Source of the DNA: an uncultured Desulfovibrionaceae bacterium
GTDB lineage: Bacteria > Desulfobacterota > Desulfovibrionia > Desulfovibrionales > Desulfovibrionaceae
Reading direction: 5' to 3'
DNA length: 64,000 nucleotides
Assembly (NCBI GenBank): GCA_964370015.1
Contig: CAYJHD010000001.1
Coordinates: forward strand, 16,884 to 80,883
The translations under genes and the position numbers were made by a program. The notes beneath the pieces were generated by a model. That model saw nothing but the letters and a program-made list of their open reading frames with translations, did no database searches and was not told the origin of the DNA. Position 1 is the stretch's first letter. Every line of letters starts with the position of its first letter. Of the stretch, positions 1 to 62,092 are shown in pieces.

Positions 1-794
1 TTATCTTTCTTAAGACTCGAAGGCTGAAATCCAAAAATTTCATACCAATCGTTGCCACACTCAGAAGCCAAAAGTTCTTGAATAAATGTAGCGTAGGAAA
101 CAGCCTGTAACATAGGTTTTGCTGTAATCGTGAAATCCTTTTTCAGCTCCATAATGCAAATAGTAGTTCCTCCACCTCGCCCTACCCTTGCTAAAATATC
201 AATTCCTCCGCCTGACCCTGCTGAGTATTTTAAATTTTTAGGATCTGACGCAGTAAAAGGCGTAGGCATTTGAAAACGGCAAATACCTGCAATTTTAACC
301 GGTTGAACACCGCATAACGCATCATTCTTTGACTTAGCATCAGTTTTTTCAAGTTCATCGAGTAAAAAAGATTCAAGCATATGCTCTTTTACACGTGGAA
401 ATTTTTCACAACTTTGAAAATGTTTCCTAAAGACTTTGGCTTCTTCGCTTAACCATAAAACTTTACCACGAGGAAAATCCTTTAGTGAGAAATATTTTTC
501 ATTTCCTTCGCTTTTAGTTACTTGCAAATAAATAGCATCATTTCCATAAACAATGTCTGCCACGTCTTGCCCACGAAATCTTAAATTAAAAGAATTCGCC
601 TTACCCTGCGCTTTCCCAACATTCATATACAAGTGCAAAGGAGCCCATTGATGAAAATTACTCTTTATTTTTTGCATTAGCCCAATATTTTCCTTAATTT
701 TTTGGGCATAATTAGCATACCGACCTTTCCATTCATCATTTTGCTGTAACCAGTTGCTTGCTACTTGCCATTGCTTGAAAAAATCAGAATTCAT
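1..794 (-). CDS. RecB/Cas4-like PD-(D/E)xK nuclease-domain protein, N-terminal 264 codons only (gene runs off the left edge)
   Basis: Absent from the ORF track. My own minus-strand translation from ATG 794-792 (GGAG at 804-801, directly after the upstream stop) stays open to base 1: MNSDFFKQWQ...HMLESFLLDELEK...GGIDILARVGRGGGTTICIMELKKDFTITAKPMLQAVSYATF. The order E / hhD / ExK / QxxxY matches RecB-family nuclease motifs. Confidence 0.6.
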   Translation of the reverse strand, partial: MNSDFFKQWQVASNWLQQNDEWKGRYANYAQKIKENIGLMQKIKSNFHQWAPLHLYMNVGKAQGKANSFNLRFRGQDVADIVYGNDAIYLQVTKSEGNEKYFSLKDFPRGKVLWLSEEAKVFRKHFQSCEKFPRVKEHMLESFLLDELEKTDAKSKNDALCGVQPVKIAGICRFQMPTPFTASDPKNLKYSAGSGGGIDILARVGRGGGTTICIMELKKDFTITAKPMLQAVSYATFIQELLASECGNDWYEIFGFQPSSLKKD

Positions 795-805
795 AATTCA
801 CTCCT

Positions 806-2065
806 TTATATTTCCATCCATTGACCATTAGCCACAGAAAACACAGTATCAAAGGTTGCCATATGCTCAGGCCAAGCTTCGCCATGCACCGGCACAAGCT
901 TAGCCCCTGTAAAGGCCGTAGCAATTTTTTGTAATATTTTCAAGGGGGCATGCCCACTCGTATGCATATGCTTAAAGCTACAAGGCGCTAAAAACTCTCT
1001 CTGAACTTTAGTACAATCCTGCTGCAGATATCCTCCCCACAAGGAAAAAATCCAGCTATCTTTTGACGTAGGAATAACGTTTTTTGCCGCAAAATCCCTA
1101 GCTAGAGAATCACGCACCACAATGACGCTTTTTTGCGCCTTAGCACTTTCCAAAGCCTCAGCGCCCAGAGCCACACGGTATTTTTTCAAATCTTCAATAT
1201 GCGGATCTTGCCCCATCCTTTTCAAATGGCGGAGCATACTTTTTGTGATAACCACGCGTAGATGCCCACCTTCCCAATGCGGCTGAGGAATACGCTCATG
1301 ATGCTGTAAAGTTCGTAAGGTGAGCATGGTGTATAAATCCACCACCAGCGTTCGCCCGCTTCGTTTACAAGCGCGGTATAAAGTCACCAATCTATCAATA
1401 TTACTAGAAGATGTGCTTATGAAAATGCGCCCTTGGCTTTCCGTAAATGCCTTCGCAAACTCATGCTCAAGCTCACTTTCCGTGGGAGTTGGCTTAGCGT
1501 GTACGCCTTGCTTTGGTAAATTAGTACCTTCCAGTAAAAGCACATCAGCCTTGGGAGGATGCGCCAAAAGATTTTCTGTTAAAAATGCCTTACGTCCATG
1601 CGCTCGAATATCTCCGGAATAAAAAAGGCTTTTTCCCTCCACCTCTATATGCAAAGCATAAGCATCAAAAGCCGAATGGTCCACCAGATACGGAGTAATG
1701 GTGAAAGGGCCTAAAGAAAAAGGGCGATTGTGTGAAAAATGCTTACATGGATGCTCTAAATGCTCTCCACCAGAAAGCAGAGAAAGACGCAGTAAGGCCT
1801 CCGTATCCTTACCACAATACACAGGCCACGTCTGCGGCAATTGTGATATCAAGCCACAATGATCCATATGCGCATGAGAAATAAACACCCCTGCCACAGG
1901 ACTATGCCTATCTAAAGATTCCGGCACTGGAGTGAGCACGCCGGAAGGAACATCCAAGGGACGTCCGGCATCCAGCAATATACGCTCCCCCGTGGAAGCC
2001 TTTACCTCTATGCACGAACCGCCAATGGTGTCCGCCCCCCTATGAATACATACTGAAACAGCCAT
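806..2065 (-). CDS. MBL-fold metallo-hydrolase of the beta-CASP nuclease type
   Basis: ORF track 806..2083; ATG 2065 preferred (AAGAGGAA 4 nt upstream). HxHxDH motif in ISHAHMDHCG, then VDHS, YSGD, LLLEGTN, and HTSGHA plus VPVHGE near the C-terminus. This is the layout of RNase J / CPSF73 / Artemis-type enzymes. Confidence 0.8.
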   Translation of the reverse strand: MAVSVCIHRGADTIGGSCIEVKASTGERILLDAGRPLDVPSGVLTPVPESLDRHSPVAGVFISHAHMDHCGLISQLPQTWPVYCGKDTEALLRLSLLSGGEHLEHPCKHFSHNRPFSLGPFTITPYLVDHSAFDAYALHIEVEGKSLFYSGDIRAHGRKAFLTENLLAHPPKADVLLLEGTNLPKQGVHAKPTPTESELEHEFAKAFTESQGRIFISTSSSNIDRLVTLYRACKRSGRTLVVDLYTMLTLRTLQHHERIPQPHWEGGHLRVVITKSMLRHLKRMGQDPHIEDLKKYRVALGAEALESAKAQKSVIVVRDSLARDFAAKNVIPTSKDSWIFSLWGGYLQQDCTKVQREFLAPCSFKHMHTSGHAPLKILQKIATAFTGAKLVPVHGEAWPEHMATFDTVFSVANGQWMEI

Positions 2066-2117
2066 ACATTCCTCTTTATACATGGTTAAAGAACACTTTT
2101 ACCTAAAGAAACATAGC

Positions 2118-2140
2118 ATCGTTTCAAAGTACGGAATGAT
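2118..2140. promoter_or_regulatory. Operator-like imperfect palindrome ATCGTTTC-N7-GGAATGAT, second copy of the WYL-gene operator
   Basis: 2117-2142 matches 8759-8784 at 22 of 26 positions in the same orientation. It lies 53-75 nt upstream of the beta-CASP ATG, in the divergent intergenic region. Confidence 0.45.
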
Positions 2141-2245
2141 AGCTAAAAAATTTATCTCCCTCCTCCTTAAAAATTGCTAAAAATCCTCTCCGTTCCGGCT
2201 TCTGGAATGACACCGTTATACAATTTTAAAAAAAGGAGTCATCCC

Positions 2246-2653
2246 ATGAAAATTTCCATGAAAAAAGCAATGTTGACAGCCCTGCTCTGCTTTATAAATA
2301 CACAAGCTCTAGCCCAAAGCCCCATGCAAGTACAAAAGACAAGTATGGCAGAAGTTAAAATTACCTCTTTACAAAATAACCTTGAAATCTATGCCATAAG
2401 TGTCAATAGGAATAATTGTATGCCCATACTTTCTTTGGATAGAGGGCAAGTTTTGAACTATGGAGATAGCTTCAACGCCATTGCCGTGGGAGAAAAAACC
2501 ACTAAAACCTATTTTTCCAATGAAGTAAGCAACGAAGCCCTGCACCAAATGAACCTCTTCATTAACATGGGTGTGAAGCAATATTGCACCGTCCTTGAAA
2601 TGACCATAGACAGCAGTGCTGGGCAATGGACTTTTTCTTGGGAAAACAAGTAA
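2246..2653 (+). CDS. Small secreted hypothetical protein
   Basis: ORF track 2174..2653; ATG 2246 preferred (AGGAG 2234-2238, 7 nt upstream). MKISMKKAMLTALLCFINTQALAQ looks like a Sec signal peptide. No recognisable domain. Confidence 0.55.
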   Translation: MKISMKKAMLTALLCFINTQALAQSPMQVQKTSMAEVKITSLQNNLEIYAISVNRNNCMPILSLDRGQVLNYGDSFNAIAVGEKTTKTYFSNEVSNEALHQMNLFINMGVKQYCTVLEMTIDSSAGQWTFSWENK

Positions 2654-3878: not shown

Positions 3879-4133
3879 ATGAAGAAAATAGATTTTACTA
3901 CCGGAAGAAAAATTTCTTCACCTGATGTAAATATGACTTCCGCTGAGCAAACGCCAAGTGCTGAAGAATTTATCTTTGATGAAACTGACTTTGATTTGCC
4001 TGCCTTTCTTTCTCAACATACCTATGGCAATGAACAACCATTTCCACCTATTCAAAAATATCGTGGCCAAGTCTACGAAAAAAAGGCTTTTGCGGAAATG
4101 ATGCAGAAATATTTTAATAGGAATAAGGGGTGA
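3879..4133 (+). CDS. Hypothetical 84-aa protein
   Basis: ORF 5 nt after the ankyrin stop, same strand. No motif recognised and the RBS is weak. Confidence 0.35.
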   Translation: MKKIDFTTGRKISSPDVNMTSAEQTPSAEEFIFDETDFDLPAFLSQHTYGNEQPFPPIQKYRGQVYEKKAFAEMMQKYFNRNKG

Positions 4134-4298: not shown

Positions 4299-6020
4299 TT
4301 ATTGGCGATGACTGCTTGCTAAAAGTTGGTGCATAGCTTCCCCATGCTGTTTAGCAAGGTTTTCATTCCAGACATTATTATTCTCTTCAGAAAGTTTAAA
4401 CATAAGTAATAATTTAATACTTTCGAGACTTTGCTCGTTTTTCAGTCTATCTTGTAGGCGTCCAAATTTTGTATTTATGGCATCATTACCTTGTGCAGAA
4501 TTGAAGCTAGCTGAAATCATAGCTAAGTTACCAAAGAAATGAACTTGGTCTCCAAATGAACCAGAAGATTGTGGATGCAAATGCTCAATGGAACGATTTT
4601 CCTTGAAAGAGTAATTTTTAATAGCTTTAAACTCATCTTTGTTAAATTTGAATTCATGCCTAGCAATATTTACCTTAATTGGCTCTTTTCCACTGCTCCA
4701 TTTTTTATCAACACATATTTCCCACAAAAGATAATCAAGCTTCCAAAACCAGTACCTTTCAATTTTTCCATAGCACATATCAACAAGTATTGGGAGGGGG
4801 CGATTATCAATTTCTTTAAGATGTTCGAGAGTTAAATCTCCTCCTTCTGACTTTTCATAAGCCTTCAGCACCCATTCTTGGCTTGCAAAAGAACTCACAC
4901 CAAGCATACTTTGATACTGTAATAATTTTCTTTTATTTATGTCTTCGTATTCTGATTCTTCACTATTGTCTTGTGATTTAAGATTAAAACCATTTTCTGT
5001 AATATAAATAATATTGCCATCTAACCATTTTCTGTACTTTTTCATTTTACTAATGAAATATTCTCCAAAAAAACACCTATTATCTATATTTTTTTTAAAA
5101 ATTTCTATAAGTTTATATTGATCCAAAGAAACCTTATCTCCTTTAAACAAAAAATCTGTATAAATTCTAAGAGCATGCAGGATAAAAGTAGACTCAGAAA
5201 CAATAGCTCGAGTTGTACTTTTTGGGCTTTTTTCAGTTGGCTCACTATACATGATATTTTCATCATCGCATTTTAATATATCTATAAAACTTTTTTTATC
5301 AGTGCATTGATTATTATTTTCAGAAATATTATCTTGAGAATATTTTTTTGAAAAATCTATAATCTTATTAAATTTAACTGCATGTTCTTGAAAATATTTC
5401 CCTTTTATAATGTCTTGAGGTTCTAACTGTCTTCCCGTAGCATTGATACGCTCAAAATGTCTATTTAGCTCATGAGGAGTATAGTTAGGATCAAGCTCTG
5501 AGCACAAAAATGTTGCTTGTGCTCGTACAAATGCAAAAAATTCACTTTTTTTGTTAATATTTTCAATAAAAGAATTAAAAGCATTAACAAACTTCCTAGT
5601 TTTCATATTTTTAATTTCATCAAATTTATTTTCAACAATATATTCTATATCTGTTGTGTCATGCTCTCTGCCTACATATTCCATTCGCAGTTCTTTATCA
5701 TTATTAAACAGAAAATCATCAAATTTTGGAGTTTCACCTTCCGCCAAGGCAGCAAAAAGAGTTAAAAATGTCAAACGTTGTTGCCCATCAACAATTTCCC
5801 AAACTTTCGCGTCTTCGCGCTTAACAATTGTTATTATACCTATATAGTAGGGGGTATCTTTCGCTTTTACCGACGCTTTATACAAATCGTCTAACAATTG
5901 ATTTATCTGCTTTTCATCCCATACAAAAAGACGTTGATAAATAGGAATACGATATCGTATACTCTTATTAATATCTTCAGACAATGACGCTATTGTATAT
6001 GAATTATTATTTTGGATCAT
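4299..6020 (-). CDS. DUF262 + DUF1524 (His-Me/HNH-like) protein, GmrSD/BrxU-like type IV restriction enzyme candidate
   Basis: N-terminal IPIYQRLFVWDEKQINQLLDDL and VDGQQRLTFLT (DUF262/ParB-like NTPase). C-terminal SIEHLHPQS ... GNLAMISASFNSAQGN (DUF1524-type nuclease). Very AT-rich coding sequence. Confidence 0.85.
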   Translation of the reverse strand: MIQNNNSYTIASLSEDINKSIRYRIPIYQRLFVWDEKQINQLLDDLYKASVKAKDTPYYIGIITIVKREDAKVWEIVDGQQRLTFLTLFAALAEGETPKFDDFLFNNDKELRMEYVGREHDTTDIEYIVENKFDEIKNMKTRKFVNAFNSFIENINKKSEFFAFVRAQATFLCSELDPNYTPHELNRHFERINATGRQLEPQDIIKGKYFQEHAVKFNKIIDFSKKYSQDNISENNNQCTDKKSFIDILKCDDENIMYSEPTEKSPKSTTRAIVSESTFILHALRIYTDFLFKGDKVSLDQYKLIEIFKKNIDNRCFFGEYFISKMKKYRKWLDGNIIYITENGFNLKSQDNSEESEYEDINKRKLLQYQSMLGVSSFASQEWVLKAYEKSEGGDLTLEHLKEIDNRPLPILVDMCYGKIERYWFWKLDYLLWEICVDKKWSSGKEPIKVNIARHEFKFNKDEFKAIKNYSFKENRSIEHLHPQSSGSFGDQVHFFGNLAMISASFNSAQGNDAINTKFGRLQDRLKNEQSLESIKLLLMFKLSEENNNVWNENLAKQHGEAMHQLLASSHRQ

Positions 6021-7335
6021 TTTTTGGCTCCAAATTTAATATTTTAGCATAATTTTCCACTGGTAAAATATGCTTATTAGGCAAGCATGTAAATAATTCG
6101 TGTAAACTCCTCAAGTAATTTTCTCGCACCCCCTCTGTATTTTCAGAAATATAACGATATTCCAATTTCAAACAGTGTACAAAGAGTACGCTTGGATTTG
6201 TAGAGGTATCAATAATTTGAACAAGATCTTGGAAAACATTTTGAGTATGAATAAAATCCTTCCGAACATAATTTTCATTACGTAATTCTGAAATTCTGTA
6301 AGCAATACAAAATAAAGCCTCAGAAAGATAATACTCACCAAATTTTAAATAAAATAAAAATGTAATAGCTTTAATAGCATTACAAAGAACACCATTACTA
6401 TGATTACGTAACTTTTTTTCTAGTTCTTTAATATCTTCAAAGTTTTCAAAAATATCTAATCTTAGCCTATGCTCATCAACAAATTCAAAAAAATCTATTC
6501 CACCATTAAAAATGGAATTATATTGCGTAAGAGTTGGTGCTACAGATATATTATCCATAATGCTATATTTTACAGAATAATGTTCAAATAGAAGGCGTCT
6601 TCCGTACTTATCTGGCTCAACATATGGCTTATCTTTGTAACTCCAATTACGCAATCTATACAGCATATAGTTAAGCAATTCTTCCTGTCTGTTTTCATCC
6701 ATTAAATTCCACTTACTCGCTATAAGACCAGATAAGTGATCAGGAACATAGCGTAAATGATGCGTTTTTAATAAATCATAGTCAGAAAGCTGCTTACCTG
6801 TTGCATTTGTAGCATTAAAAAATCTATACGCGAGATCTTCTGGCTCATCATTCGGAATAGTCACAAGGCAAACTTTAATTTCATCTAAAAAAAACTGTAA
6901 AACTTTGTCTTTTCCAAGAAACCACATTTCAATTGTTTTTAAAGCTCTAATAATATATCCTATATGCTCTTTTGATATATTTTCAGTTTCTGATATATCA
7001 CTTTGTAACAATGGTACACATTCATCCCCTTTCTCATTGCTAATGTAGATTAAAATTGAAAGAGTTATTAGTCTTTGTTGCCCATCAATAATGGAAAGTT
7101 CATCTTTTTCTCCCTGTTTTACAATAATAGTCCCCAGATGAAATGATGCGTTACTAGCATTTTTATGATTATAAATATCATCTAGCAAAGCAACAATATT
7201 TTCACTACGCCAACAATATCCTCGTTGATAGGCAGGAATACTAAGAGTTTTGAGAAGTAGCTTTTTTAATAATATGGTATCACAGGAAACTTGACTAGGA
7301 TTTGAGTTATTAGATAAAGAAATTTGATTTGACAT
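6007..7335 (-). CDS. DUF262 domain protein without recognisable nuclease domain
   Basis: ORF track 6007..7353; ATG 7335 preferred (GGAG 5 nt upstream). IPAYQRGYCWRSENIVALLDDI and IDGQQRLITLS. No HNH/DUF1524 motif seen downstream. 14-nt overlap with the next gene. Confidence 0.8.
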   Translation of the reverse strand: MSNQISLSNNSNPSQVSCDTILLKKLLLKTLSIPAYQRGYCWRSENIVALLDDIYNHKNASNASFHLGTIIVKQGEKDELSIIDGQQRLITLSILIYISNEKGDECVPLLQSDISETENISKEHIGYIIRALKTIEMWFLGKDKVLQFFLDEIKVCLVTIPNDEPEDLAYRFFNATNATGKQLSDYDLLKTHHLRYVPDHLSGLIASKWNLMDENRQEELLNYMLYRLRNWSYKDKPYVEPDKYGRRLLFEHYSVKYSIMDNISVAPTLTQYNSIFNGGIDFFEFVDEHRLRLDIFENFEDIKELEKKLRNHSNGVLCNAIKAITFLFYLKFGEYYLSEALFCIAYRISELRNENYVRKDFIHTQNVFQDLVQIIDTSTNPSVLFVHCLKLEYRYISENTEGVRENYLRSLHELFTCLPNKHILPVENYAKILNLEPKNDPK

Positions 7336-7367
7336 AGCCACTCCTAAAATCATAACAATAGAATGTA

Positions 7368-7677: not shown

Positions 7678-8688
7678 TTAGTAGCTCTGTGCTAGCATAG
7701 TGACTTGTTTTTTCAGCTCATCCCGCAGCCAATGCGGTTCCAGCACCTTAGCTTTAGCCCCAAAGCTGAACACCCAAGACACAATTTCCGGTGGGCTTTG
7801 AGCGTCAAAATCTAACATCAACGAGCCATCATCTTGCACGGTCATACTTTGTCTATTGCTCCACACCCTATCGTAAATGTAGGCTGCCGTTTCTGCCGCA
7901 AAGAGGATGCGTACTCTAAAAGAATCCCCCTGCATAATGCCAAAGGGGCCTACCTTTGTACTCTCTTGAGCATAAGGCGGTTCTGAAATATGACTAGCAT
8001 CAAGCTCCGTCATCTGTACCTCTTGGCAACGTTGTAAATACAACGATAGTGCATTATCATATTTAGGTTGTGCAGGATGAGCCTCATCCACTTCCCAGCC
8101 ATGAAAAGAAAGACTCTCTCTAAAAGAAATAAGTCTCTTGGGCGCAAAGGCAAATGTTCTGGCAGGCTTGGAAGGGCTACGCTTATAGGTCACCATACAT
8201 ACTTTTTGCTTTTGCGTTGCTTGCAATAAGATGCTGTACTGCTTTTCATAAGACGCATAATCAATATAGCCCTTATGGAAGTTTTTGGCCGCTGCAGCAA
8301 AAGGAGAGAGCAAAGGAGACTCCGGTTTTTCTGCAGTTTGCGATGGGGCATCTCCTAAAAAAGCATTCATCCCTTTAGGCAGCATCTGCAAAAACAGATT
8401 CCGACAAAGATTGAGCTGCATAAGCTCCTTAACCCCAAGATTCAAATCGAGCATGGGCATGGGAGCAAAACGATGATAATGTTCCTTCCCCTTAACTAAA
8501 GGCGTATCCAGCTTGCCATATCCCGAAGCCTCTAATTGCAGTAAAAGACGTGATACTGTCTGCTTAGAGCATTCCAAAATGCGCGCTAGCTCCGTTAAAG
8601 ATGTATAGCTTTCCCCTTGCACCATGAAAAATGTGTACAGGGCTAAAAGCTTTTCACCGGGGCTTTTTTCAGATTTCTTCACTGGCAT
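7678..8688 (-). CDS. HTH-WYL-WCX transcriptional regulator (BrxR/CapW-like architecture)
   Basis: N-terminal wHTH SLTELARILECSKQTVSRLLLQLEASG. Central WYL-type segment VCMVTYKRSPSKPARTFAFAPKRLISFRESLSFHGW. C-terminal FRVRILFAAETAAYIYDRVW...GSLMLDF...WVFSFGAKAKVLEPHWLRDEL. RBS AGGAAGGA upstream of ATG 8688. Confidence 0.8.
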   Translation of the reverse strand: MPVKKSEKSPGEKLLALYTFFMVQGESYTSLTELARILECSKQTVSRLLLQLEASGYGKLDTPLVKGKEHYHRFAPMPMLDLNLGVKELMQLNLCRNLFLQMLPKGMNAFLGDAPSQTAEKPESPLLSPFAAAAKNFHKGYIDYASYEKQYSILLQATQKQKVCMVTYKRSPSKPARTFAFAPKRLISFRESLSFHGWEVDEAHPAQPKYDNALSLYLQRCQEVQMTELDASHISEPPYAQESTKVGPFGIMQGDSFRVRILFAAETAAYIYDRVWSNRQSMTVQDDGSLMLDFDAQSPPEIVSWVFSFGAKAKVLEPHWLRDELKKQVTMLAQSY

Positions 8689-8759: not shown

Positions 8760-8782
8760 ATCGTTCCAAAATACGGAACGAT
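8760..8782. promoter_or_regulatory. Perfect palindrome ATCGTTCC-N7-GGAACGAT, putative WYL-regulator operator
   Basis: Read directly. It lies 72-94 nt upstream of the WYL gene ATG and overlaps AT-rich promoter-like sequence (TATATATA). It is duplicated at 2117-2142. Confidence 0.5.
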
Positions 8783-9082: not shown

Positions 9083-9219
9083 GTGGCACAGAAGTGGCAC
9101 AACGACACTATGCCCTACGTGAGCATAAACGAAAAAATTTATCAAGAGCTTCACAACTCCCATTGATTCACGTCAGCTCACCTTATTTCATCTCCAAAAG
9201 TGGCACAGGAGTGGCACAA
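9083..9219. repeat. Two copies of GTGGCACAGRAGTGGCACAA (four GTGGCACA octamers)
   Basis: 9083-9102 and 9200-9219 differ at one base. They lie between the island and tRNA-Pro. Confidence 0.6.
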
Positions 9220-9276: not shown

Positions 9277-9353
9277 TGGTCGGGATGAAAGGATTTGAAC
9301 CTTCGACCCCTTGAACCCCATTCAAGTGCGCTCCCAGGCTGCGCTACATCCCG
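9277..9353 (-). tRNA. tRNA-Pro, anticodon GGG, CCA encoded
   Basis: Manual cloverleaf: acceptor CGGGATG/CATCCCG, D stem GCGC/GCGC, anticodon stem CTTGA/TCAAG with loop ATGGGGT, T stem GAAGG/CCTTT, T loop TTCAAAT, discriminator A, CCA. 77 nt. Confidence 0.9.
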
Positions 9354-9690: not shown

Positions 9691-10629
9691 TTACAACAAA
9701 GAAAATTGCCTACGCATCACGCTATGGTTTGGACGTTGCGTGATAATGGCATCATCAGGTAACTGCCCCACCAGCAGCTGTGATGTAGGATCGTGCACAC
9801 GCACATTTCGCTTACCCCTTTCATCGCTGCTTAAAGCATAGCAATAAGAACAGCCATTGGCGCAAGAATTATACGTTCCAATTTCAATGCTTTCCACACA
9901 CTGACACTCAGGTCTTTGATGTTTATCGCGCGCAACATCTATGGAGCAACCCAGTATTTTCTCTATAATGTCTTTATCAATACAAGAAGAAGCTTGTACG
10001 CCATGGGCAGACAGGTCACTTTTTTCTGAGCACGTATGGAGTGTGAATCCGAACTCGCGCCCAATGGATGAAAAAGTTTCTGCAATGGCATTCATCATAT
10101 CATAAGAAACACTATACGCAGGTAATTTACCCAACCTATTTTGCATATTCTTATAAATATCCACAAAGCTTATGATACACCTATCGGTACATCCACTCAG
10201 ATGCCTTGCCATATATCTAAAGGCTTTTTCGTGATATTCCACAGTAAAAATACTATCCACCATGATGGGATCATAACGCCACACCATTCTATGCGCACCA
10301 AGTTGCTTACTCAGCTCTTGAAAAGCTTGTAAAAGTCGCACTTTATCGGGTAAATTTCTTTCTACGCTTTTATTATAGGGCGTTATGGTAAATTGAAAAT
10401 AATAAGGATAACCCAAACTATCTATGATGGGCAAGTATTGCAAAAAAGGAAGGGGATTTTTAGTCCAAAAAACAATGCAATCCACAGCTTCTCGCCGTAA
10501 ATCTACCCCATAATAACGCTGAGCATTATAAGGGTTTGGCACAAGAACATGACCTCTTTGCAAAGCATTTACAAACCACTGCCCATAATAGGACGGAATG
10601 TCCGTTCTTCTGCTGGCACTTAGTATCAT
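9691..10629 (-). CDS. DUF1848 family protein with C-terminal Cys cluster (possible Fe-S DNA-repair enzyme)
   Basis: N-terminus MILSASRRTDIPSYYGQWFVNALQRGHVLVPNPYN matches my memory of DUF1848. Cys cluster CQCVESIEIGTYNSCANGCSYCYA. Last gene of the umuDC-ogt-alkD operon. Confidence 0.7.
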   Translation of the reverse strand: MILSASRRTDIPSYYGQWFVNALQRGHVLVPNPYNAQRYYGVDLRREAVDCIVFWTKNPLPFLQYLPIIDSLGYPYYFQFTITPYNKSVERNLPDKVRLLQAFQELSKQLGAHRMVWRYDPIMVDSIFTVEYHEKAFRYMARHLSGCTDRCIISFVDIYKNMQNRLGKLPAYSVSYDMMNAIAETFSSIGREFGFTLHTCSEKSDLSAHGVQASSCIDKDIIEKILGCSIDVARDKHQRPECQCVESIEIGTYNSCANGCSYCYALSSDERGKRNVRVHDPTSQLLVGQLPDDAIITQRPNHSVMRRQFSLL

Positions 10630-10638
10630 AAATAGGTT

Positions 10639-11328
10639 CTATCTTCTCATGAGTTTAATACGTGCTTTGGTCTCAGCATCCACTTTTAACGATTCACGTA
10701 TTTTTTGTAACGATTTATTATACGTGAAATCGTCCAATCTATTTTTTTGCAAAAAAAGCAGAGTGCGTTCAGGAAAGGAGACAAAACACATGGACACAGC
10801 CCAAGCCACAGCCATTTTCACATAATAATCTTCATGTGTTATCTGATTAAACATCTCAAAAAGGCTCTCAAGGCACACCTCTTCTCTAAAGTACATCAAG
10901 CATAAAACCACAGCAAAGCGTATATCATAGGCCTGTGCAGATGCGGCATAAGGTTGCAAAAACTCCCAAAAAATTTCGGGATGTTTTTTTACTATTTTAA
11001 GCTCGGTGCAAAAAGAATCACACAAAGACCAATTGGTGATCTTAGGTACAAAAAAAGCCACATGAGGCAAAATAGTTTGCACATCCACCTTCATATTGCC
11101 AATGATAAGCCCTTTGAGCATGGTTTCTTCAAAGTAGATGTCGCTAGTATGATAAAGATATGCCTCTCCATCTTGCTTGGCAATGCGCTGCGCTATTTTG
11201 CGCAAAAGCGGTATGCGCACGCCCAACAGATTTTCACAGCCGGGAATGAGCGCCGCAGAAAATTTTTGATACTTGGGCTCAGCTAAAGCCAACAGTTCCT
11301 GACGTATGGTATTTTCTAAAGTATGCAT
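10639..11328 (-). CDS. DNA alkylation repair protein (AlkC/AlkD-like HEAT-repeat glycosylase family)
   Basis: 229 aa. LLALAEPKYQKFSAALIPGCENLLGVRIPLLRKIAQRIAK and a helical-repeat character typical of the DNA alkylation repair enzyme family. Confidence 0.75.
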   Translation of the reverse strand: MHTLENTIRQELLALAEPKYQKFSAALIPGCENLLGVRIPLLRKIAQRIAKQDGEAYLYHTSDIYFEETMLKGLIIGNMKVDVQTILPHVAFFVPKITNWSLCDSFCTELKIVKKHPEIFWEFLQPYAASAQAYDIRFAVVLCLMYFREEVCLESLFEMFNQITHEDYYVKMAVAWAVSMCFVSFPERTLLFLQKNRLDDFTYNKSLQKIRESLKVDAETKARIKLMRR

Positions 11329-11336
11329 ACAGCCCC

Positions 11337-11816
11337 CTACTTACAACGCGCTTCCAAAGTCAGTAAATACGCTTTCATTTCCACACCACTGGCATAGCCC
11401 ACCAATTTCCCGCTGGCCCCAATGACACGATGACAAGGCACAATAACACCTATGGGATTTTTATTATTGGCCATCCCCACGGCGCGACATGCTTTTTCAT
11501 TGCCAATGGCCACGGCTATATCTTTATAAGAGCGTGTTTCTCCATAGGGAATATCACATAGCGCCTTCCATACCTTTTGTTGGAACTCTGTTCCTTTACC
11601 GGCATAAGCAAAGGAAAAAACCTTCCTTTCTCCAGCAAAATACTCCAAAAGCTCAGCAAAGACAGCATCGGAAAAGGGGGATTTTTCTCCCATATCTTGC
11701 GTCTCTTGATCTTTTTGCAGAGTCTCTGACAATCTTTTAAAACGCGTTAGCACTTCACCTTCATAACACATTTCAAAAAAGCCAAACTCACAAAGATACA
11801 CAGCTCTTTTTTCCAT
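11337..11816 (-). CDS. ogt: Methylated-DNA--protein-cysteine methyltransferase
   Basis: Active-site PCHRV in IVPCHRVIGASGKLVGY, preceded by IPYGETRSYKDIA. Confidence 0.9.
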   Translation of the reverse strand: MEKRAVYLCEFGFFEMCYEGEVLTRFKRLSETLQKDQETQDMGEKSPFSDAVFAELLEYFAGERKVFSFAYAGKGTEFQQKVWKALCDIPYGETRSYKDIAVAIGNEKACRAVGMANNKNPIGVIVPCHRVIGASGKLVGYASGVEMKAYLLTLEARCK

Positions 11817-11825
11817 ACTATTCCT

Positions 11826-13217
11826 CTAACGACAAAAAGCTCTAGGGATGGCGTCCCAAGAGGTGGTAAATTTAGGAGAGCGGTATTTTTGCCGCATGCG
11901 CCAAGGTGCACTCACGCCTTCACTGGCCTCCACACCTTTTCCTAGGCCCTGCCCCGCGTATTGTAAGGTGTGCTGTCCATAGCGCGCGTTCACTCCATCC
12001 AGTGCTTGCATGAGCTTTTGAGCTCGCTTATTGGCCTGCTCTTGCCCTTGTGATGCCAGTGTTAGCAAAGACCCTTGCTGCGTATGGGCTGATCCTAAAT
12101 CAAAAAGCATAACTCCGGCCTTGGCGTAAATCACACCTTCTTTAAATAAAGCATCCAAGCCACGCATGGCCGTTTGTACCATGATTGTGGTATCATCTGT
12201 GGCATGGGCAAAACGCATTTGCAAGGTTTCATTATAAGGGTGTTCCCCTTCAATGCATCTATGCTTTGAGGCACGAATATGCACAGCCATGCCTCCCGCC
12301 AAAAGTTTTTCTCGGCGTAAGCGCTGCGCGGCATTGACAGTAAAGGTGGTCAGCGCCTCAGCAAGATGCCCCTTGGCATATACGCGTTCCCCAAAGGAGC
12401 GCGAAGAAACCAAGGTATGTCTATGGCTAGGGGCATTTTCTGCGTCAATGCAAGCTATTCCACGCAATTCCATGGCTGTGCGCAAGCCCGTCACCGTCAA
12501 TTTTTTTTGTATCCACGCATCGGGCATATTACGCAAAGCCAAGGCCGTATTCACACCCACCGCCGCAAGCTTTGCCGCTTGACGTCGCCCAATGCCCCAC
12601 ACTTCGCCCACGGGTATACGTGCCAGCAGAGCCTCTTGAGCCGCCGCTTCGACAGGGAATACATACACACCGTGCCCTGCTCCGTGCCCCATTGCTTTCT
12701 GCTGTTCTTTTTTTGCTAAGTGATTGGCAAGCTTAGCCAAGGTGCGCGTGGGGCCTATGCCCACCGACACCGCTATGCCCGTCCACTGCAAAACACGCTG
12801 ACGTATGAGCTGTGCAGCTTCTTGAGCTTGTTTTTGCAAGGGGCCTTCAAAGCGTAAAAAAGCTTCATCTATGGAATATTGCTCCATATGCGGTACCACG
12901 CCTTCCGTCACATCCATAACTCGCTGAGAGATATCACCATACAAAGTATAGTTGGAGGAAAACACCGCCACATTATGTCTTTTTAAAAAGGCACGCGCTT
13001 TAAATTCTGGTTCTGCCATGGGTATGCCTAAGGCTTTGGCCTCGGCGGAGCGCGCCACAATGCATCCATCATTATTGGAAAGCACCACTATGGGCCGCCC
13101 CTGTAAGTCCGGACGAAAAAGCCGCTCACAGGAAGCATAAAAATTATTGCAGTCCATGAGCCCCCAGAGCTGCCCTTGGCCCTGCTCACTGAGTAGCTTA
13201 GAGCTTATGGATGACAT
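11826..13217 (-). CDS. umuC: Y-family translesion DNA polymerase, UmuC-like
   Basis: MDCNNFYASCERLFRPDLQGRPIVVLSNNDGCIVARSAEAKALGI is near-identical in pattern to the E. coli UmuC N-terminus. The true start may be the internal Met at 13157. Confidence 0.9.
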   Translation of the reverse strand: MSSISSKLLSEQGQGQLWGLMDCNNFYASCERLFRPDLQGRPIVVLSNNDGCIVARSAEAKALGIPMAEPEFKARAFLKRHNVAVFSSNYTLYGDISQRVMDVTEGVVPHMEQYSIDEAFLRFEGPLQKQAQEAAQLIRQRVLQWTGIAVSVGIGPTRTLAKLANHLAKKEQQKAMGHGAGHGVYVFPVEAAAQEALLARIPVGEVWGIGRRQAAKLAAVGVNTALALRNMPDAWIQKKLTVTGLRTAMELRGIACIDAENAPSHRHTLVSSRSFGERVYAKGHLAEALTTFTVNAAQRLRREKLLAGGMAVHIRASKHRCIEGEHPYNETLQMRFAHATDDTTIMVQTAMRGLDALFKEGVIYAKAGVMLFDLGSAHTQQGSLLTLASQGQEQANKRAQKLMQALDGVNARYGQHTLQYAGQGLGKGVEASEGVSAPWRMRQKYRSPKFTTSWDAIPRAFCR

Positions 13218-13668
13218 AACTCACCACGCCCCATATGTGCACATGTTCGCGTTCGGTAATATCCACTTCGGGATAGTCGGGATTTTCCGGAAGTAGCCAC
13301 ACACGCCCTTGACGGCGCACCAAACGCTTGACCATAAGTTCTCCGTCCAATGCCGCTATGACCACGCGATTATGCCCGGCCTCCAGCGACCTATCAACAA
13401 TGAGCAAATCCCCATCATGAATGCCGGCATTGATCATGGATTGCCCCTCGGCACGCAAAAAAAACGTAGCCGCAGGATTACGCACCAAATGCGCATGCAA
13501 GTCCAACTTTTGCTCCACATAATCATCGGCCGGCGAAGGAAAGCCCGCCGCCACCGGTGTTAAATATAAGGGCAAACCTCGCTGCATGGATTCTTCTTCA
13601 CTACTCTGCCCCTCGAAGCGCAAACCATGTGCCAGCGGCAATGCATTTTCGTCAAAACAATTCTTCAT
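13198..13668 (-). CDS. umuD: UmuD-like S24 self-cleaving peptidase (Pol V accessory subunit)
   Basis: VAAGFPSPADDYVEQKLDLHAHLVRNPAATFFLRAEGQSMINAGIHDGDLLIVD ... VKRL gives the Ala-Gly site and the Ser/Lys dyad context, as in E. coli UmuD. Confidence 0.85.
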   Translation of the reverse strand: MKNCFDENALPLAHGLRFEGQSSEEESMQRGLPLYLTPVAAGFPSPADDYVEQKLDLHAHLVRNPAATFFLRAEGQSMINAGIHDGDLLIVDRSLEAGHNRVVIAALDGELMVKRLVRRQGRVWLLPENPDYPEVDITEREHVHIWGVVSYVIHKL

Positions 13669-57712: not shown

Positions 57713-60700
57713 CTACTTTTCTATTATGGAATACGTGCGCGAACCATCCTTGTGGAAGAAGATAACACGTAAACGAATTTTAGCATTACCAATACTGCCA
57801 TTATCCTGCATAACAAGATCTAATGTCACTGGACTGGACACATCCACACTGAAAGCCGCATCATTGACATTGAGCGCTTTACCGTCTTGCATCACAGCCA
57901 AAACGCCAATCGCCTTGGTCTTAACACTTTGAGTCTTCCAAGAAGCATTGCTACCACCTAGACTCTCCACACGCACACCCACCAAGGGGCTTTTGCCATG
58001 GGCTAATACGCGTATGTTCGAATCTGGTTTACTATCGGAGGTAAAAGCAGTAAGGCTCATACTATCCGTAGTTATGGGCACAATGACAGCCTTGCCTGGC
58101 TTTTTGGGCGCGGGAGCTGTAGGTTGCGCTCCAGTGATAGCAATGGGTGCAGTTTTAACTTCAGCTTGCACCGGCTTAACTTCTGCCTGGACAGGAGTTT
58201 CAGCTTTAGCCTCGGCTTTAGCGGGAGCCGCAGTCTCTGGCTTATCTTCAGATTTAGTTTCAGGTTTAGCTTCAGACTTAGTTCCAGCTTTAACATCGGG
58301 CTTAGTTTCAGCTTTAGCTTCAACTTGGACAGGCATCTGTGTTTTAGCTTCGGCGGAAGCCGCGGCTTTGGTCAATTGATTCAAATGTCCAGTATGTGCA
58401 GTCACAGAGGTTTTACTCTTTTTCATGCCATCCCACATGGCTTTTTGAACCTTATCTTCGGCGCTCCTCCACTGTAGCATGGGCTTTACAGGTGCAAATT
58501 GCCCCAATTGCCACATGCCATCGGGCAACTGTTTGGGGTCTATCATGGAGCTAAAACGCTTATACGTGTCTTTATTCATGGTGGCTTCAGAAGTGCGCAC
58601 CATAAAATGCATTTTTCCAGCTTCAGCTTGCTGCAGAAGATAGATTTCCTTTTCATTGGGGAAAAATTCCCATTCAAAGGTCTGTGTAGCACCAGGTTTG
58701 ATATTTTCTGAAGTAACCTTTGTGACCCAAGGCAACCAACCCTGCCCCTTTGCATCTTCAAAGAACATCATAAATTTCGTGGGCTTTACAGCTTGTTTTG
58801 CAGTATTTTGCACTATTGCCTGCACACGCAATTGCACTGTGCCCTTTTCCGTTTTAAACACTTCATAAGAGCCGCCTGTAACGTGTAACAAGTCCAGTAC
58901 GGCATTGCTGACTGTTTGAGCAGCCACAGTACGTAAAGTGGCTTTTTTGCCATTGGCAAGTTCTTTTTCACGGTCAGGGAAACGTTGTCTAAGTTCACCC
59001 CTTTGAGTGGCACTGAGCTTTCCTACCATGCCTTGCAGTATAAAGTTATTATCTTTTTTCACAAAAAATAGATTATTGTCATTCATTTCCAGCATAAGCA
59101 TTTGGGGAGTAAGAATATGCAGATTGCTTTTTTCAAGCTTACGTGGAGTAATTTCCAATGTCCCCACAGTGAACGTACCCTTTTCCGACACAGATTTAGC
59201 AATGCTCTCGGCTTGTGCAGTGTATTTTTGCTCATCGAAAAGCTCATTATGAATCTGCTCTTCTAAACCGCTGGCTCTATCTTGCAGATTTTTCCACGAA
59301 ACAAGATTGGGCACATTGATGAATTCTAAAAATTTCTTGCCATTTTTACTGCGCAAGGTTTCCACCATGAACATAAGTTCTTGGCGTGGTTCATCGAGCT
59401 TATAACCAGATAAGAGCTGCATCCATGCTTCAGCCAACATAGTGCCATTTTTTTCAAAGTAACGCTTATCAGTGCTGGGCGGCACTATAAGCTTGTACGA
59501 ATTATTAAAAGGTACAAAAAGCGCATAGGTATTGGTCGTGGCTGTAGGGAGCGTTGCCAACACACACTGTTCTTTGCCATCAAGAAAGGCAAAAGTAGCC
59601 TTCTTCCACGCTTCAATGTCCCAAATGGGAGTTACATACTTAGAAGATGGTGTGCCTGTTTTTACACTGTTCCTAAAGCTACTTTGTATAGAATGCAATG
59701 GCGCTAATTTTGCGCGTAATGAACCTCTCAACTCATCCTGTATTGCAAGAAAAACAGTAAGTATATCTATGGAAGATTCAATATATTTCTCAGCCAAGGG
59801 AGCATTTTTTTCCGTAATGGCTTTCACAATATTGGCACTGACTTCCTGCATTTTTTTCTGCATTTCGGCCAAAACTTTTTGTTTGCGAGCTTCCTCCTTG
59901 GCTATTTCTTCTTCTATGACTTTGGCGCGTGTGGCCACGTCTGCGTGCCAGTTTTCAGGACGCTTTAAAGAAGTTGCATTGGAGGCATAACGTACGATTT
60001 TCCACGCGTCTTTTTCTGTTTTACGCACTAAGAGCAAGTGCTGATTCGGCAAACTCACAATGGCTTCCAGTGGTTGTACTGCCATGGACGAAATTTTTGC
60101 AAAACCGTCCTTCAGAGGGGTCTTTTTCTGCCATTTGCCCGTGCTCACTTGCTCTAAAAAAGCTTTTACGTCGGCATTACTCTTGGCATTGACGGCCATG
60201 GCCTGAGCTGTGTTTTCAAGGTTGCCATTATCACGCAAAAAAGAGGGTAGGTCGATATACTGCTCAAAAACTTTAGGGTCATTGGCAGTGTAAGCCTTTT
60301 GTAAGGCAGTGAACACGACTTGAACGGAATCATTCAAAGCAAATTGTACTTCATACTTTTTGACAAGGTCAGCCAGCTTAGCATCCCAATCTTTGGGACG
60401 AATTAACTCTCCTACGGTATTAATTCGAGCTAATTTCCACGGCTCATCCCCCTTTTTTCTTTCAAAAAAATAAAAAGTTTCTTTACCTCTTCTCTGCATC
60501 ACCACTTCTAATTCGTCCACAAAAAAACTATCTACATCTTTTAAGCTAAATGTTGATGTTCCATTACGAATTCCATCGAGAAATTTTTCTACGTCTTCAT
60601 TGTTTTTACCATATTTGGCCATGGCAATAGCCGTTTTATTTATGTCTCCATCATCGCGAATCACCATGGGCAAGGCAAGGTATTTCTCAAATACTTCTGG

Positions 60701-62092
60701 CGAGTTATTCACTATAGCTTTATTAAGTTCAGCTATAATATTTTCTATTTCCTTCGTCCATTTAGCTTCGTTGGCTACTTGCGTTTGAGCTTTGATATAA
60801 AGTTCTGAAAACTTTTTAGCTAAAGTAATCATGTATTCTTCAAGGGATACAGTTACAATAGTATTATCTTTTTCAAATGGATAATATGTTACACGAGCAT
60901 AATTCTTCCCGAACTTGAAAGGGTCGTACTGCGCAAGAGCACTTCCCTTACCAATCCACTTATCACCTTCTTTTAAAAGAATGGTATAGAAAAATGAACT
61001 TCCAGCATCATTCGTGTCAAAATTTATCCATTTTGTATAAGAATTTTTATAGGCATCTACAGTTGATCTTCCTTCTGTAGGAACATATTGCTTTAAAAGC
61101 ATAGTATTATCATTTTTCCATACAACTTCTACCGTAGCCATGGTAGCATAGTGTTGTAAAAAAATACCGAATGAAACTGACTCTTCAATGCCTTTCATTG
61201 TACTATCTATGAACTTCTGTGCCTCTTTTTCAAGTTTTATATTTTCATATATTCCTAAAGAGACTAAGTTCCAAAATGCCTTAGAATTATATTCAGCTTT
61301 TGTATTTACATGATACATATTAAAATATCGAGGACCTGACATTTCATATGTTGTTTTGGCAACTTCTGGCCATTTTTTTTCATTGGCAAAGGTTTGAAGT
61401 TGCTTTAATTGCGGTCCCATTTCTTGCAAATACAGTTCTGCCCCCTTTTTGCGCGCAGCAATTCTTGCCAGCATATCTTCCTCCACCTTGCGAGCAGCTT
61501 CAGCTCTGTCCATGGCAGCTTTTTTATTACCGGCAAGGCTTACGATACGCCATTTCTTATCAATGAACGCAAGACCAAGCACGCCTTCTTGCCCATCAGG
61601 CATGGTGGCCACAGCGGCAATAATGCCCTCTTGTTTACCTTCACCCATATCACCATAAGTAAGCTTGCTCAGCACATTGGGATCAAAGGGTAGCGTGGAG
61701 CTTTTGTATTTGCGGCAATAATTAGCAAAATCCCCCGAGGCAACCGTATTCGTGATGGTCTTAAGCAAGGCATCCATCATGAAATAAGATTGAGTGGCAC
61801 GGTCAGCATTAAGCCGACGAACCTGCTTAAAAGCATCGCCCTTCACAAAGAGATCTTTAAGCCACGCATAGCTGGGGTTTTCATGGTCGCCTCTGTATAC
61901 TTCAGCAAGTCGTACCCAATATTCCTTGGGCACACGCTCCATAAAGGCCACATGGTCATTATTTTCAATGGCTGTAATGAGAGCTTTGACGCCTTCTTCC
62001 GGCTTTTCGCCGCCCATACCCAAAAAGCCCGTGCTCAGCGTGAGCGTTATACCCACAATGACAAAAGATAAGATTTTTTGCACCATACGCAT
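57713..62092 (-). CDS. 1459-aa secreted modular protein with tandem modules of about 140 aa, a Lys/Glu/Ala/Pro linker and a 130-aa C-terminal domain shared with the upstream gene
   Basis: AAGGAG 8 nt upstream of ATG 62092. Signal-like MRMVQKILSFVIVGITLTLSTGFLG. Repeated helix motif xxAIxxNDxxxFExYIDLP. C-terminus KKPGKAVIVPITTD...FFHKDGSRTYSIIEK. Confidence 0.7.
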   Translation of the reverse strand: MRMVQKILSFVIVGITLTLSTGFLGMGGEKPEEGVKALITAIENNDHVAFMERVPKEYWVRLAEVYRGDHENPSYAWLKDLFVKGDAFKQVRRLNADRATQSYFMMDALLKTITNTVASGDFANYCRKYKSSTLPFDPNVLSKLTYGDMGEGKQEGIIAAVATMPDGQEGVLGLAFIDKKWRIVSLAGNKKAAMDRAEAARKVEEDMLARIAARKKGAELYLQEMGPQLKQLQTFANEKKWPEVAKTTYEMSGPRYFNMYHVNTKAEYNSKAFWNLVSLGIYENIKLEKEAQKFIDSTMKGIEESVSFGIFLQHYATMATVEVVWKNDNTMLLKQYVPTEGRSTVDAYKNSYTKWINFDTNDAGSSFFYTILLKEGDKWIGKGSALAQYDPFKFGKNYARVTYYPFEKDNTIVTVSLEEYMITLAKKFSELYIKAQTQVANEAKWTKEIENIIAELNKAIVNNSPEVFEKYLALPMVIRDDGDINKTAIAMAKYGKNNEDVEKFLDGIRNGTSTFSLKDVDSFFVDELEVVMQRRGKETFYFFERKKGDEPWKLARINTVGELIRPKDWDAKLADLVKKYEVQFALNDSVQVVFTALQKAYTANDPKVFEQYIDLPSFLRDNGNLENTAQAMAVNAKSNADVKAFLEQVSTGKWQKKTPLKDGFAKISSMAVQPLEAIVSLPNQHLLLVRKTEKDAWKIVRYASNATSLKRPENWHADVATRAKVIEEEIAKEEARKQKVLAEMQKKMQEVSANIVKAITEKNAPLAEKYIESSIDILTVFLAIQDELRGSLRAKLAPLHSIQSSFRNSVKTGTPSSKYVTPIWDIEAWKKATFAFLDGKEQCVLATLPTATTNTYALFVPFNNSYKLIVPPSTDKRYFEKNGTMLAEAWMQLLSGYKLDEPRQELMFMVETLRSKNGKKFLEFINVPNLVSWKNLQDRASGLEEQIHNELFDEQKYTAQAESIAKSVSEKGTFTVGTLEITPRKLEKSNLHILTPQMLMLEMNDNNLFFVKKDNNFILQGMVGKLSATQRGELRQRFPDREKELANGKKATLRTVAAQTVSNAVLDLLHVTGGSYEVFKTEKGTVQLRVQAIVQNTAKQAVKPTKFMMFFEDAKGQGWLPWVTKVTSENIKPGATQTFEWEFFPNEKEIYLLQQAEAGKMHFMVRTSEATMNKDTYKRFSSMIDPKQLPDGMWQLGQFAPVKPMLQWRSAEDKVQKAMWDGMKKSKTSVTAHTGHLNQLTKAAASAEAKTQMPVQVEAKAETKPDVKAGTKSEAKPETKSEDKPETAAPAKAEAKAETPVQAEVKPVQAEVKTAPIAITGAQPTAPAPKKPGKAVIVPITTDSMSLTAFTSDSKPDSNIRVLAHGKSPLVGVRVESLGGSNASWKTQSVKTKAIGVLAVMQDGKALNVNDAAFSVDVSSPVTLDLVMQDNGSIGNAKIRLRVIFFHKDGSRTYSIIEK
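58120..58340 (-). repeat. Low-complexity coding repeats (AKAETKPDVKAGTKSEAKPETKSEDKPETAAPAKAEAKAETPVQAEVKPVQAEVK)
   Basis: Degenerate short DNA repeats (tttagcttcag / tttagtttcag units) read directly. They encode the linker in front of the C-terminal domain. Confidence 0.6.

Follow-up and report, generated by a model that had tools for sequence, protein, structure and literature searches.

At one edge of a 64,000-nucleotide (nt) stretch of DNA from an uncultured Desulfovibrionaceae bacterium (GenBank assembly GCA_964370015.1, contig CAYJHD010000001.1, positions 16,884 to 80,883; hereafter the window) a gene for a metallo-beta-lactamase (MBL) protein of the beta-CASP type is followed at once by a gene for a protein with the motifs of PD-(D/E)xK nucleases. 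The locus raises the question of what two different nuclease folds do together in one tight operon, which an initial annotation had proposed to be an undescribed two-gene nuclease module. The reading that we favour, and to which we would give an even chance, is that of a mobile dual-nuclease cassette, controlled by a regulator of the WYL family and most likely directed against invading DNA (phages, plasmids, mobile elements).

The open reading frame (ORF) of the MBL protein spans 806..2083 on the minus strand and would encode 425 residues if an alternative upstream ATG at 2083 were used; we prefer the ATG at 2065, which is preceded by the ribosome-binding site (RBS) AAGAGGAA and yields the 419-residue product found as P0077 in the protein collection. 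All three sequence blocks by which this protein had been recognised at the outset (HAHMDH, HTSGHA and VPVHGE) are present and invariant across 30 homologues. Its stop codon, read from the sequence as TAA at 808-806, is separated from the ATG of the second gene (gene 2) by a spacer of 11 nt bearing AGGAG, the layout of translational coupling. The reading frame of gene 2 is open to base 1 and runs off the window end, so that an ORF list skipping such frames misses it, in agreement with the earlier remark that a coupled gene had been overlooked. Its complete product was recovered as P0001 (322 residues), 100% identical over the 264 residues encoded in the window.

Searches with the MBL protein led to the RNase J group. 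Pfam returned Lactamase_B_2 at 9e-16, along with weak matches to RMMBL and RNase_J_b_CASP, and the NCBIfam RNase J family was matched at E = 8e-18, yet the scores lie below the RNase J thresholds (64 bits against a cut-off of 400 for TIGR00649, 48 bits against 820 for NF047419). In a sequence search of the PDB, RNase J proteins came up together with EF2904 (2az4), an uncharacterised protein from structural genomics, and the C-terminal blocks HTSGHA and VPVHGE aligned with HVSGHA and LPVHGE of RNase J. Among the 30 homologues the metal ligands and beta-CASP motifs (H64, H66, D68, H69, H130, D152, E179, H368 and H394) are invariant, as is the segment formed by H368, S370, G371, H372 and A373. 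The AlphaFold 2 (AF2) model built on their alignment (predicted local distance difference test, pLDDT, 93.7) superposes in full length on RNase J structures and 2az4 (Foldseek, template-modelling score 0.72-0.78, E ~1e-25), and displays an MBL domain with an inserted beta-CASP domain and the RNase J motifs 1-4, A, B and C. The protein thus shares with RNase J and EF2904 the insert, all metal and beta-CASP motifs and the HxSGHA pocket, but it is only ~19% identical to RNase J and lacks the C-terminal dimerisation domain, its chain stopping at 419 residues right after the last MBL strand, whereas RNase J chains count 540-560 residues (~555 in this comparison). Therefore it constitutes a separate RNase-J-like beta-CASP family and not an RNase J orthologue. 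RNase J, a bacterial and archaeal exo- and endoribonuclease with 5'-3' polarity, is moreover a housekeeping enzyme, unlike the window protein, which is accessory, encoded in a coupled operon with a PD-(D/E)xK nuclease and subject to putative WYL control. The HxSGH segment of RNase J is the 5'-monophosphate pocket driving its 5'->3' exonuclease action, and because this segment is strictly conserved the MBL protein is predicted to be a 5'-phosphate-dependent exonuclease.

Other identities considered for the MBL protein were rejected. Its score far under the cut-off, the missing C-terminal domain and an accessory distribution speak against a housekeeping RNase J. A ligase-associated repair exonuclease of the Lhr/ligase operon found no support either, since the list of 11 NCBIfam matches up to E = 1 does not include the model of that DNA-damage-response exonuclease and neither ligase nor Lhr occurs among the 251 neighbour genes surveyed (see below) or in the window. 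The Apyc1-type cyclic-nucleotide phosphodiesterases (PF23023 / NF041851) were matched only locally, over residues 114-187 and with 26 bits against a cut-off of 400; Apyc1 is an MBL of ~250 residues without a beta-CASP insert, whereas the window protein has it. Within PADLOC-DB 2.0.0 no system component was matched, PtuB at E = 0.055 being the sole match.

The product of gene 2 belongs to no family in Pfam, NCBIfam, PADLOC-DB 2.0.0 or PHROG. A word-indexed search retrieved 76 homologues, and among 1.84 billion cluster representatives a profile run gave 834 hits at E <= 1e-3, of which 498 reached E <= 1e-30; by sequence it is a discrete family of moderate size. Invariant in 29 diverse homologues are E137, E141, P165, F174, R203, E216, K218, Q230 and Y234, together with the GGIDIL stretch (G196-G-I-D199-I-L201). 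The AF2 model (pLDDT 91.4, predicted template-modelling score 0.91) follows the order alpha-beta-beta-beta-alpha-beta, made up of helix 136-148, strands 163-165, 200-204 and 211-217, helix 226-243 and strand 266-275. E137 and E141 lie on the first helix, D199 opens strand 200-204, E216-x-K218 closes strand 211-217 and the RecB-like QxxxY motif (Q230, Y234) falls in the next helix, so that the motifs noticed beforehand are both conserved and placed where a PD-(D/E)xK site requires them. Because the series E...GGIDIL...ExK...QxxxY is invariant and the model confident, the protein is predicted to be a PD-(D/E)xK nuclease.

Foldseek found no significant neighbour of the gene 2 model in the PDB and BFVD, and a profile search of the PDB gave nothing relevant; the weak top structures were McrC (E = 0.058) and a phage PD-(D/E)xK protein (E = 0.013), and weak neighbours mostly came from this superfamily (McrC, PaqCI, the AddB nuclease domain, FokI, Exo5, phage proteins, UL24). 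The N-terminal ~130 residues, for which the model shows two long helices together with a beta sheet, had no counterpart in the Foldseek searches of these two collections, and some members of the family have ~200 additional N-terminal residues. Of the label 'RecB/Cas4-type' given to this protein initially, the motif order survives: the predicted core, with E on helix 1, D on strand 2, ExK on strand 3 and then QxxxY, resembles those of RecB-family, Cas4 and McrC-type nucleases, but no significant sequence or structure match links them, and gene 2 has neither a helicase nor an McrB partner and carries an N-terminal domain of its own. The four-cysteine iron-sulphur cluster of the Cas4/AddB type is likewise missing, with no conserved cysteine in the invariant or near-invariant columns of the 29 homologues; therefore gene 2 is not Cas4, an identity for which CRISPR context was lacking as well.

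The pair is not a peculiarity of this genome. Scanning one genome per species, we collected 80 loci encoding the gene 2 family, which represent no fewer than six phyla (Bacteroidota, Desulfobacterota, Bacillota, Omnitrophota, Actinomycetota and Spirochaetota). Fifty of these loci have an MBL homologue as immediate same-strand neighbour, downstream in 41 and upstream, as in the window, in nine, and in 14 further loci it lies within 3.5 kb; of the 63 well-flanked loci, whose sequence extends 1.4 kb or more to each side, 55 carry the MBL within 3.5 kb. Both genes frequently overlap by 4 nt in related loci. At L038 the gene 2 family and the MBL are fused into one ORF of 714 residues, and P0167 and P0190 join another PD-(D/E)xK domain to the MBL N-terminus. 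Two independent fusions suggest physical cooperation of the MBL and its partner. With both folds modelled, the MBL far below the RNase J cut-off and gene 2 without a family, the early suspicion of two nuclease folds in one operon that is no known housekeeping pair is supported, and none of the three outcomes named at the outset as refuting it was observed.

Seen from the MBL, the conserved unit is wider than the pair. Among 8,000 candidates scored, 3,487 proteins reached E <= 1e-10, a total that may take in beta-CASP enzymes outside the cassette family. When 80 metagenomic loci were picked by the MBL, the gene 2 family was present in only 3-4, and most of them carry another gene, with a product of ~300-390 residues and usually a 4-nt overlap with the MBL start. 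The largest of these alternative partner families (35 non-redundant sequences) has E121, D146, E148, D163, E178, K180, Q200 and Y204 invariant and shares the motif order E..D..ExK..QxxxY with gene 2; smaller families have D..E[LA]K, in some cases accompanied by Q..Y. The D..ExK pattern occurs in 27 of 79 MBL-adjacent ORFs compared with 11 of 185 elsewhere in those loci (Fisher p = 1.5e-8). The alternative partners have no Pfam family and, in PADLOC, either no match or a weak one to PDC-S11 at 1e-7. Alignment of the gene 2 family with the alternative families by hhalign put the catalytic cores in register without significance (E = 0.012, probability 4%), and therefore only a superfamily-level relatedness is claimed between partner families. 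The closest relative of the window MBL (65% identity) is followed by a member of the alternative partner family, and locus L088 carries both partner types; partner exchange therefore takes place over short evolutionary distances. The pairing proposed at the start is hence real, but the two-gene module has to be redrawn as an MBL with an exchangeable PD-(D/E)xK partner, often with a WYL regulator.

The cassette has a WYL regulator next to it in 23 of 80 loci, as well as in L081, L086, L094, L171 and L177; this recurrence of flanking genes therefore makes WYL-MBL-partner the probable ancestral unit. In the window a regulator with winged helix-turn-helix (wHTH), WYL and WCX domains shares 40% identity along its entire length with that of L081, whose gene overlaps the MBL start. 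The initial annotation had spoken of a copy of the WYL operator ahead of the nuclease operon, and this was borne out: a perfect palindrome located 72 nt upstream of the regulator gene recurs, with 3 mismatches, ahead of the MBL gene (Table 1). These two are the only matches in the 64 kb and 0 of 100 shuffles yielded two; a degenerate search allowing one mismatch gave 3 sites in the window against 0.14 expected. The right arm of the copy at the MBL gene holds TTGAAA, a -35-like hexamer. A regulator and a common inverted repeat at both promoters, as in BrxR/CapW-like WYL loci, can thus both be read in the sequence. No copy of the palindrome precedes the UmuDC/Ogt cluster of the window, and the operator sequence is not conserved in other cassette loci. 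Between the regulator and the nuclease operon lie 5.5 kb with a GmrSD-like pair, an ankyrin protein and small ORFs, the two parts having probably been separated while the shared putative operator was kept at both promoters. At L094, where a related WYL regulator precedes an MBL-partner pair, the 9-mer GAAACGATG, equal to the right arm of the window MBL operator, occurs upstream of the regulator (~3900-3960), a half-site that may reflect conservation or chance.

Table 1. Features of the window that bear on the nuclease cassette and its surroundings
Feature	Position	Strand	Basis or remark
Gene 1, 419-residue RNase-J-like beta-CASP MBL nuclease (predicted)	806..2065	-	ORF; Pfam, PDB, model
Intergenic spacer, 11 nt	795..805	-	RBS AGGAG at 805-801, 6 nt ahead of the gene 2 ATG (794-792)
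Gene 2, codons 1-264 of a predicted PD-(D/E)xK nuclease of 322 residues	1..794	-	Truncated by the window edge
Operator-like 23-nt palindrome ATCATTCCGTACTTTGAAACGAT = ATCATTCC-GTACTTT-GAAACGAT	2118..2140	.	53 nt upstream of the MBL start
Possible weaker operator CCGTTCC-N7-GGAATGA	2190..2210	.	Same divergent intergenic region
Small signal-peptide protein	about 2243-2653	+	Divergent from the MBL operon
Ankyrin-repeat protein, 415 residues	2626-3873	+	Divergent from the MBL operon
Two overlapping DUF262/GmrSD-type genes	4299-6020 and 6007-7353	-	GC content only 29%; directly downstream of the WYL regulator
wHTH-WYL-WCX regulator, presumed cassette controller	7678..8688	-	Pfam WCX 4e-17 and HTH; PADLOC WYL 5e-17
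Perfect 8-N7-8 palindrome ATCGTTCCGTATTTTGGAACGAT = ATCGTTCC-GTATTTT-GGAACGAT	8760..8782	.	Presumed autoregulation site
tRNA-Pro(ggg)	9277-9353	-	Island flank
UmuD (S24 peptidase), UmuC, Ogt, AlkD-like and DUF1848 run	9691-13668	-	Across the tRNA from the island

The surroundings of the cassette are mixed from locus to locus. In the window the nuclease operon belongs to an island flanked by tRNA-Pro, with a patchy GC content of 29-47%. Just 3' of the tRNA gene a 20-nt direct repeat, GTGGCACAG[A/G]AGTGGCACAA, occurs at 9083-9102 and 9200-9219; it may represent the border, or what is left of an att site, of the island that groups the nuclease operon with the WYL gene, the ankyrin gene and the GmrSD-like pair. 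One member of the GmrSD-type pair carries DUF7834 and the other a GmrSD_C/HNH-like end, and the pair matches HEC-06, Orf5 and SspE (N-terminal) in PADLOC; it is probably a type IV restriction-like system under the same WYL regulator. Two unrelated loci likewise have ankyrin-repeat genes as neighbours of the cassette.

Beyond the window, we surveyed the 251 genes standing within two positions of the cassette in 80 loci. Recurrent domains were Metallophos (18), WYL/WCX (13), DNA_pol3_alpha fragments (five), sigma-70 (four) and DprA (three). A metallophosphoesterase of ~198 residues follows the MBL in 22 Bacteroidales loci and corresponds at near full length to the PADLOC candidate PDC-S10 (E = 5e-64), a model matched by 19 of the 251 neighbours. 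Scattered defence matches among immediate neighbours concern JetD, mad2/3 (MADS), MzaA, IetA, a Type I methyltransferase and several PDC candidates; at L174 the gene of a Type ISP restriction enzyme is found 2 kb from the cassette. An N6_Mtase was encoded by one gene among the 251, a reason to discard a classical type II restriction-modification system, and a phage gene was discarded as well, the pair being present on just 3 of 2.9 million viral contigs (IMG/VR) and the nuclease having no PHROG. Proteins of ~170 residues matching only the first half of DNA_pol3_alpha (PF07733) are encoded between the nuclease and MBL genes, or immediately ahead of them, in Prevotella-type loci (L063 9039-9551, L064 1285-1797, L072 9058-9579, L069 10212-10712, L026 45-566), where they might serve as decoy or sensor. 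At the far end of the window two adjacent genes on the minus strand (57713-62092 and 62119-63975) encode large secreted proteins, tandem paralogues with a near-identical C-terminal block of ~130 residues (KKPGK..IV..TTD.MS.TAFT.D.KPDS…RLRV.F.HKDGSR.YS.IE.).

A role in defence is favoured because of the accessory, mobile and fast-recombining character of the cassette and its defence-island companions. Beyond the gene anatomy, the folds and the co-occurrence, which were observed, the mechanism is a proposal: in the unstressed cell a dimer of the wHTH-WYL-WCX regulator would occupy the 8-N7-8 palindromes and keep its own gene and the MBL operon low, and single-stranded DNA (ssDNA) or damage arising during infection would release or activate it, as in CapW, BrxR, PafBC and DriD. 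Translational coupling would then deliver both nucleases in a fixed ratio, probably as one complex since natural fusions exist. Within it, the PD-(D/E)xK subunit, which has a family-specific N-terminal domain, would choose the target and cut it so as to leave 5'-phosphate ends; the beta-CASP MBL, with its 5'-monophosphate pocket of the RNase J type (HTSGHA), would load onto these ends for degradation in the 5'->3' direction; different PD-(D/E)xK partners on the same MBL would confer different target specificities.

A number of observations weigh against this proposal. Neither protein matches any PADLOC-DB 2.0.0 model and, beyond WYL and PDC-S10, ~6-7% of the 251 neighbours match defence models (raw share). 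Neither a methyltransferase nor any other partner for self-protection turned up, which leaves the discrimination of self from non-self unexplained, and homology among the partner families is statistically unestablished, as the hhalign values given above indicate. The structures closest to that of the MBL belong to RNases, and its substrate may therefore be DNA or RNA. Some loci lie in repair-type contexts and one, L177, in an RNA-repair context, and WYL regulators run pure DNA-damage regulons as well.

Because of these regulons and of several repair-gene neighbours, the main rival explanation is a damage-response repair pair, which we regard as possible though rather unlikely. A WYL regulator sensing ssDNA after damage would induce a structure-specific PD-(D/E)xK endonuclease and a 5'->3' beta-CASP exonuclease, and the pair would process blocked, cross-linked or protein-capped DNA ends in analogy to XPF-ERCC1 with SNM1A/Pso2, or to Artemis. 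The beta-CASP enzymes do include the DNA-repair nucleases SNM1 and Artemis, but the structure of the window MBL is nearer to RNase J than to either of them. PafBC, DriD and SiwR are described as ssDNA-binding WYL activators of damage responses; in the window, however, the palindrome is missing from the UmuDC-Ogt-AlkD-DUF1848 cluster, which lies just across the tRNA and would otherwise be in keeping with repair. RecC/RecB are encoded downstream of the cassette in L083-L085, DprA and DNA_pol3_alpha fragments recur among the neighbours, and Tag glycosylase and AP endonuclease genes lie nearby in a Sedimentibacter locus; the cassette itself, nevertheless, resides in mobile elements and restriction-rich islands, its distribution is patchy and accessory, and its partners are exchanged between close MBL relatives. 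Even the metallophosphoesterase companion, which could clean 3' ends, is a defence-island candidate (PDC-S10). As a further observation on Sedimentibacter sp. MB31-C6 (L169, 12247-13200), an ADP-ribosylglycohydrolase gene directly follows the MBL, as it does in one more locus, and a Macro-domain gene is close by.

A more specific form of this idea, which we hold to be doubtful, would see in the cassette a bacterial counterpart of the XPF plus SNM1A logic: a WYL-induced, ssDNA-sensing route in which incision by an exchangeable, lesion- or structure-specific PD-(D/E)xK endonuclease would be followed by digestion past the lesion, carried out by a shared 5'-phosphate-dependent beta-CASP exonuclease. 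Eukaryotic XPF-ERCC1 and SNM1A also combine a PD-(D/E)xK endonuclease with a beta-CASP 5'-3' exonuclease and provide a working analogy, but homology with the cassette ends at the fold class and our analysis yielded no evidence of cross-link repair for it. If true, such a reading would amount to a horizontally mobile, SOS-independent processing of cross-links or adducts, undescribed in bacteria.

Improbable, and to be ranked below the preceding ones, is an RNA-directed module, in which the RNase-J-like enzyme and its partner would act as a stress or abortive-infection RNase pair or in RNA damage and repair. This explanation draws on the likeness of the MBL to RNase J: its top sequence and structure matches are all RNases (RNase J, CPSF73, aCPSF) and its 5'-phosphate pocket motif HxSGHA is conserved. 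The partner points the other way, its motif set with the RecB-like QxxxY being typical of DNA nucleases and its weak structural neighbours being DNA enzymes; WYL control, moreover, responds to ssDNA in every studied case that we know of. RtcA, RtcB and Hen1 are encoded a few kb downstream of the nuclease-WYL-MBL cassette of L177 (10121-14025), past a transposase gene, another RtcB is found among the surveyed neighbours and genes of the NYN/OST-HTH RNase type lie near the cassette in L083 and L169, but the RNA-repair neighbours are single instances. Least probable of all, and in our view very unlikely, is a selfish function serving the life cycle of an element or competition between elements (processing of host DNA, exclusion of rivals) and not host immunity, which would agree with the integrase, Mob (Mob_Pre), Toprim primase and AlpA genes of the L081 element, the DnaB-like helicase island with variable flanks in L171-L173 (Phascolarctobacterium), the transposase beside the cassette in L177, the tRNA-flanked island of the window and the viral contigs carrying the pair, but those contigs are only three, many loci have no mobile-element genes within 8 kb and such a function overlaps operationally with defence.

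Defence against invading DNA thus being retained as the favoured role, the cassette can be compared with described systems. It resembles BrxR-BREX (bacteriophage exclusion) and CapW-CBASS (cyclic-oligonucleotide-based antiphage signalling) loci in that a wHTH-WYL-WCX regulator is encoded along with the effectors, with short inverted repeats at its own promoter and at a second one in the island; for BrxR these are R-BOX1 and R-BOX2, with arms of 10-11 bp and a spacer of 5 bp (PMC9122601). The effectors are unrelated, however, and the window regulator lies at a distance with intervening genes. Shedu (SduA, DUF4263) likewise relies on a PD-(D/E)xK effector with a varying N-terminal part, nuclease-only and without methyltransferase, but Shedu consists of one gene, from another Pfam family, whereas the cassette has an obligatory beta-CASP partner; neither DUF4263 nor the PADLOC Shedu model matched gene 2. 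PDC-S10, catalogued by PADLOC as a single-gene candidate, is the third gene of the Bacteroidales cassette, and none is present in the window as far as visible. No PADLOC-DB 2.0.0 model includes the two nucleases and no description of the pair was found in the full-text literature searched, whose coverage is incomplete, so that absence is not proof; within these limits the initial impression that the pairing is absent from described systems stands. To our knowledge, the beta-CASP fold is otherwise represented in immunity only by Cas14 of type VII CRISPR and by accessory MBL proteins that belong to Avs2 and HamMAB. The cassette is a well-supported candidate system whose function we infer, and it is not categorically new because its fold classes are known and nuclease-based, WYL-regulated accessory modules are familiar.

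If a defensive role were confirmed, a widespread module would be added to bacterial immunity, the partner family alone accounting for 834 clusters at 50% identity, several orphan families would acquire a name and a function and PDC-S10 would find its place in a larger system. The architecture of the cassette, unusually clean, lends itself to the study of how one effector is re-targeted by the swap of a partner subunit. Should the function be repair instead, the cassette would represent a new WYL-controlled, SOS-independent route of damage processing. On either reading, the putative WYL operator pair of the window offers a directly testable regulatory circuit.

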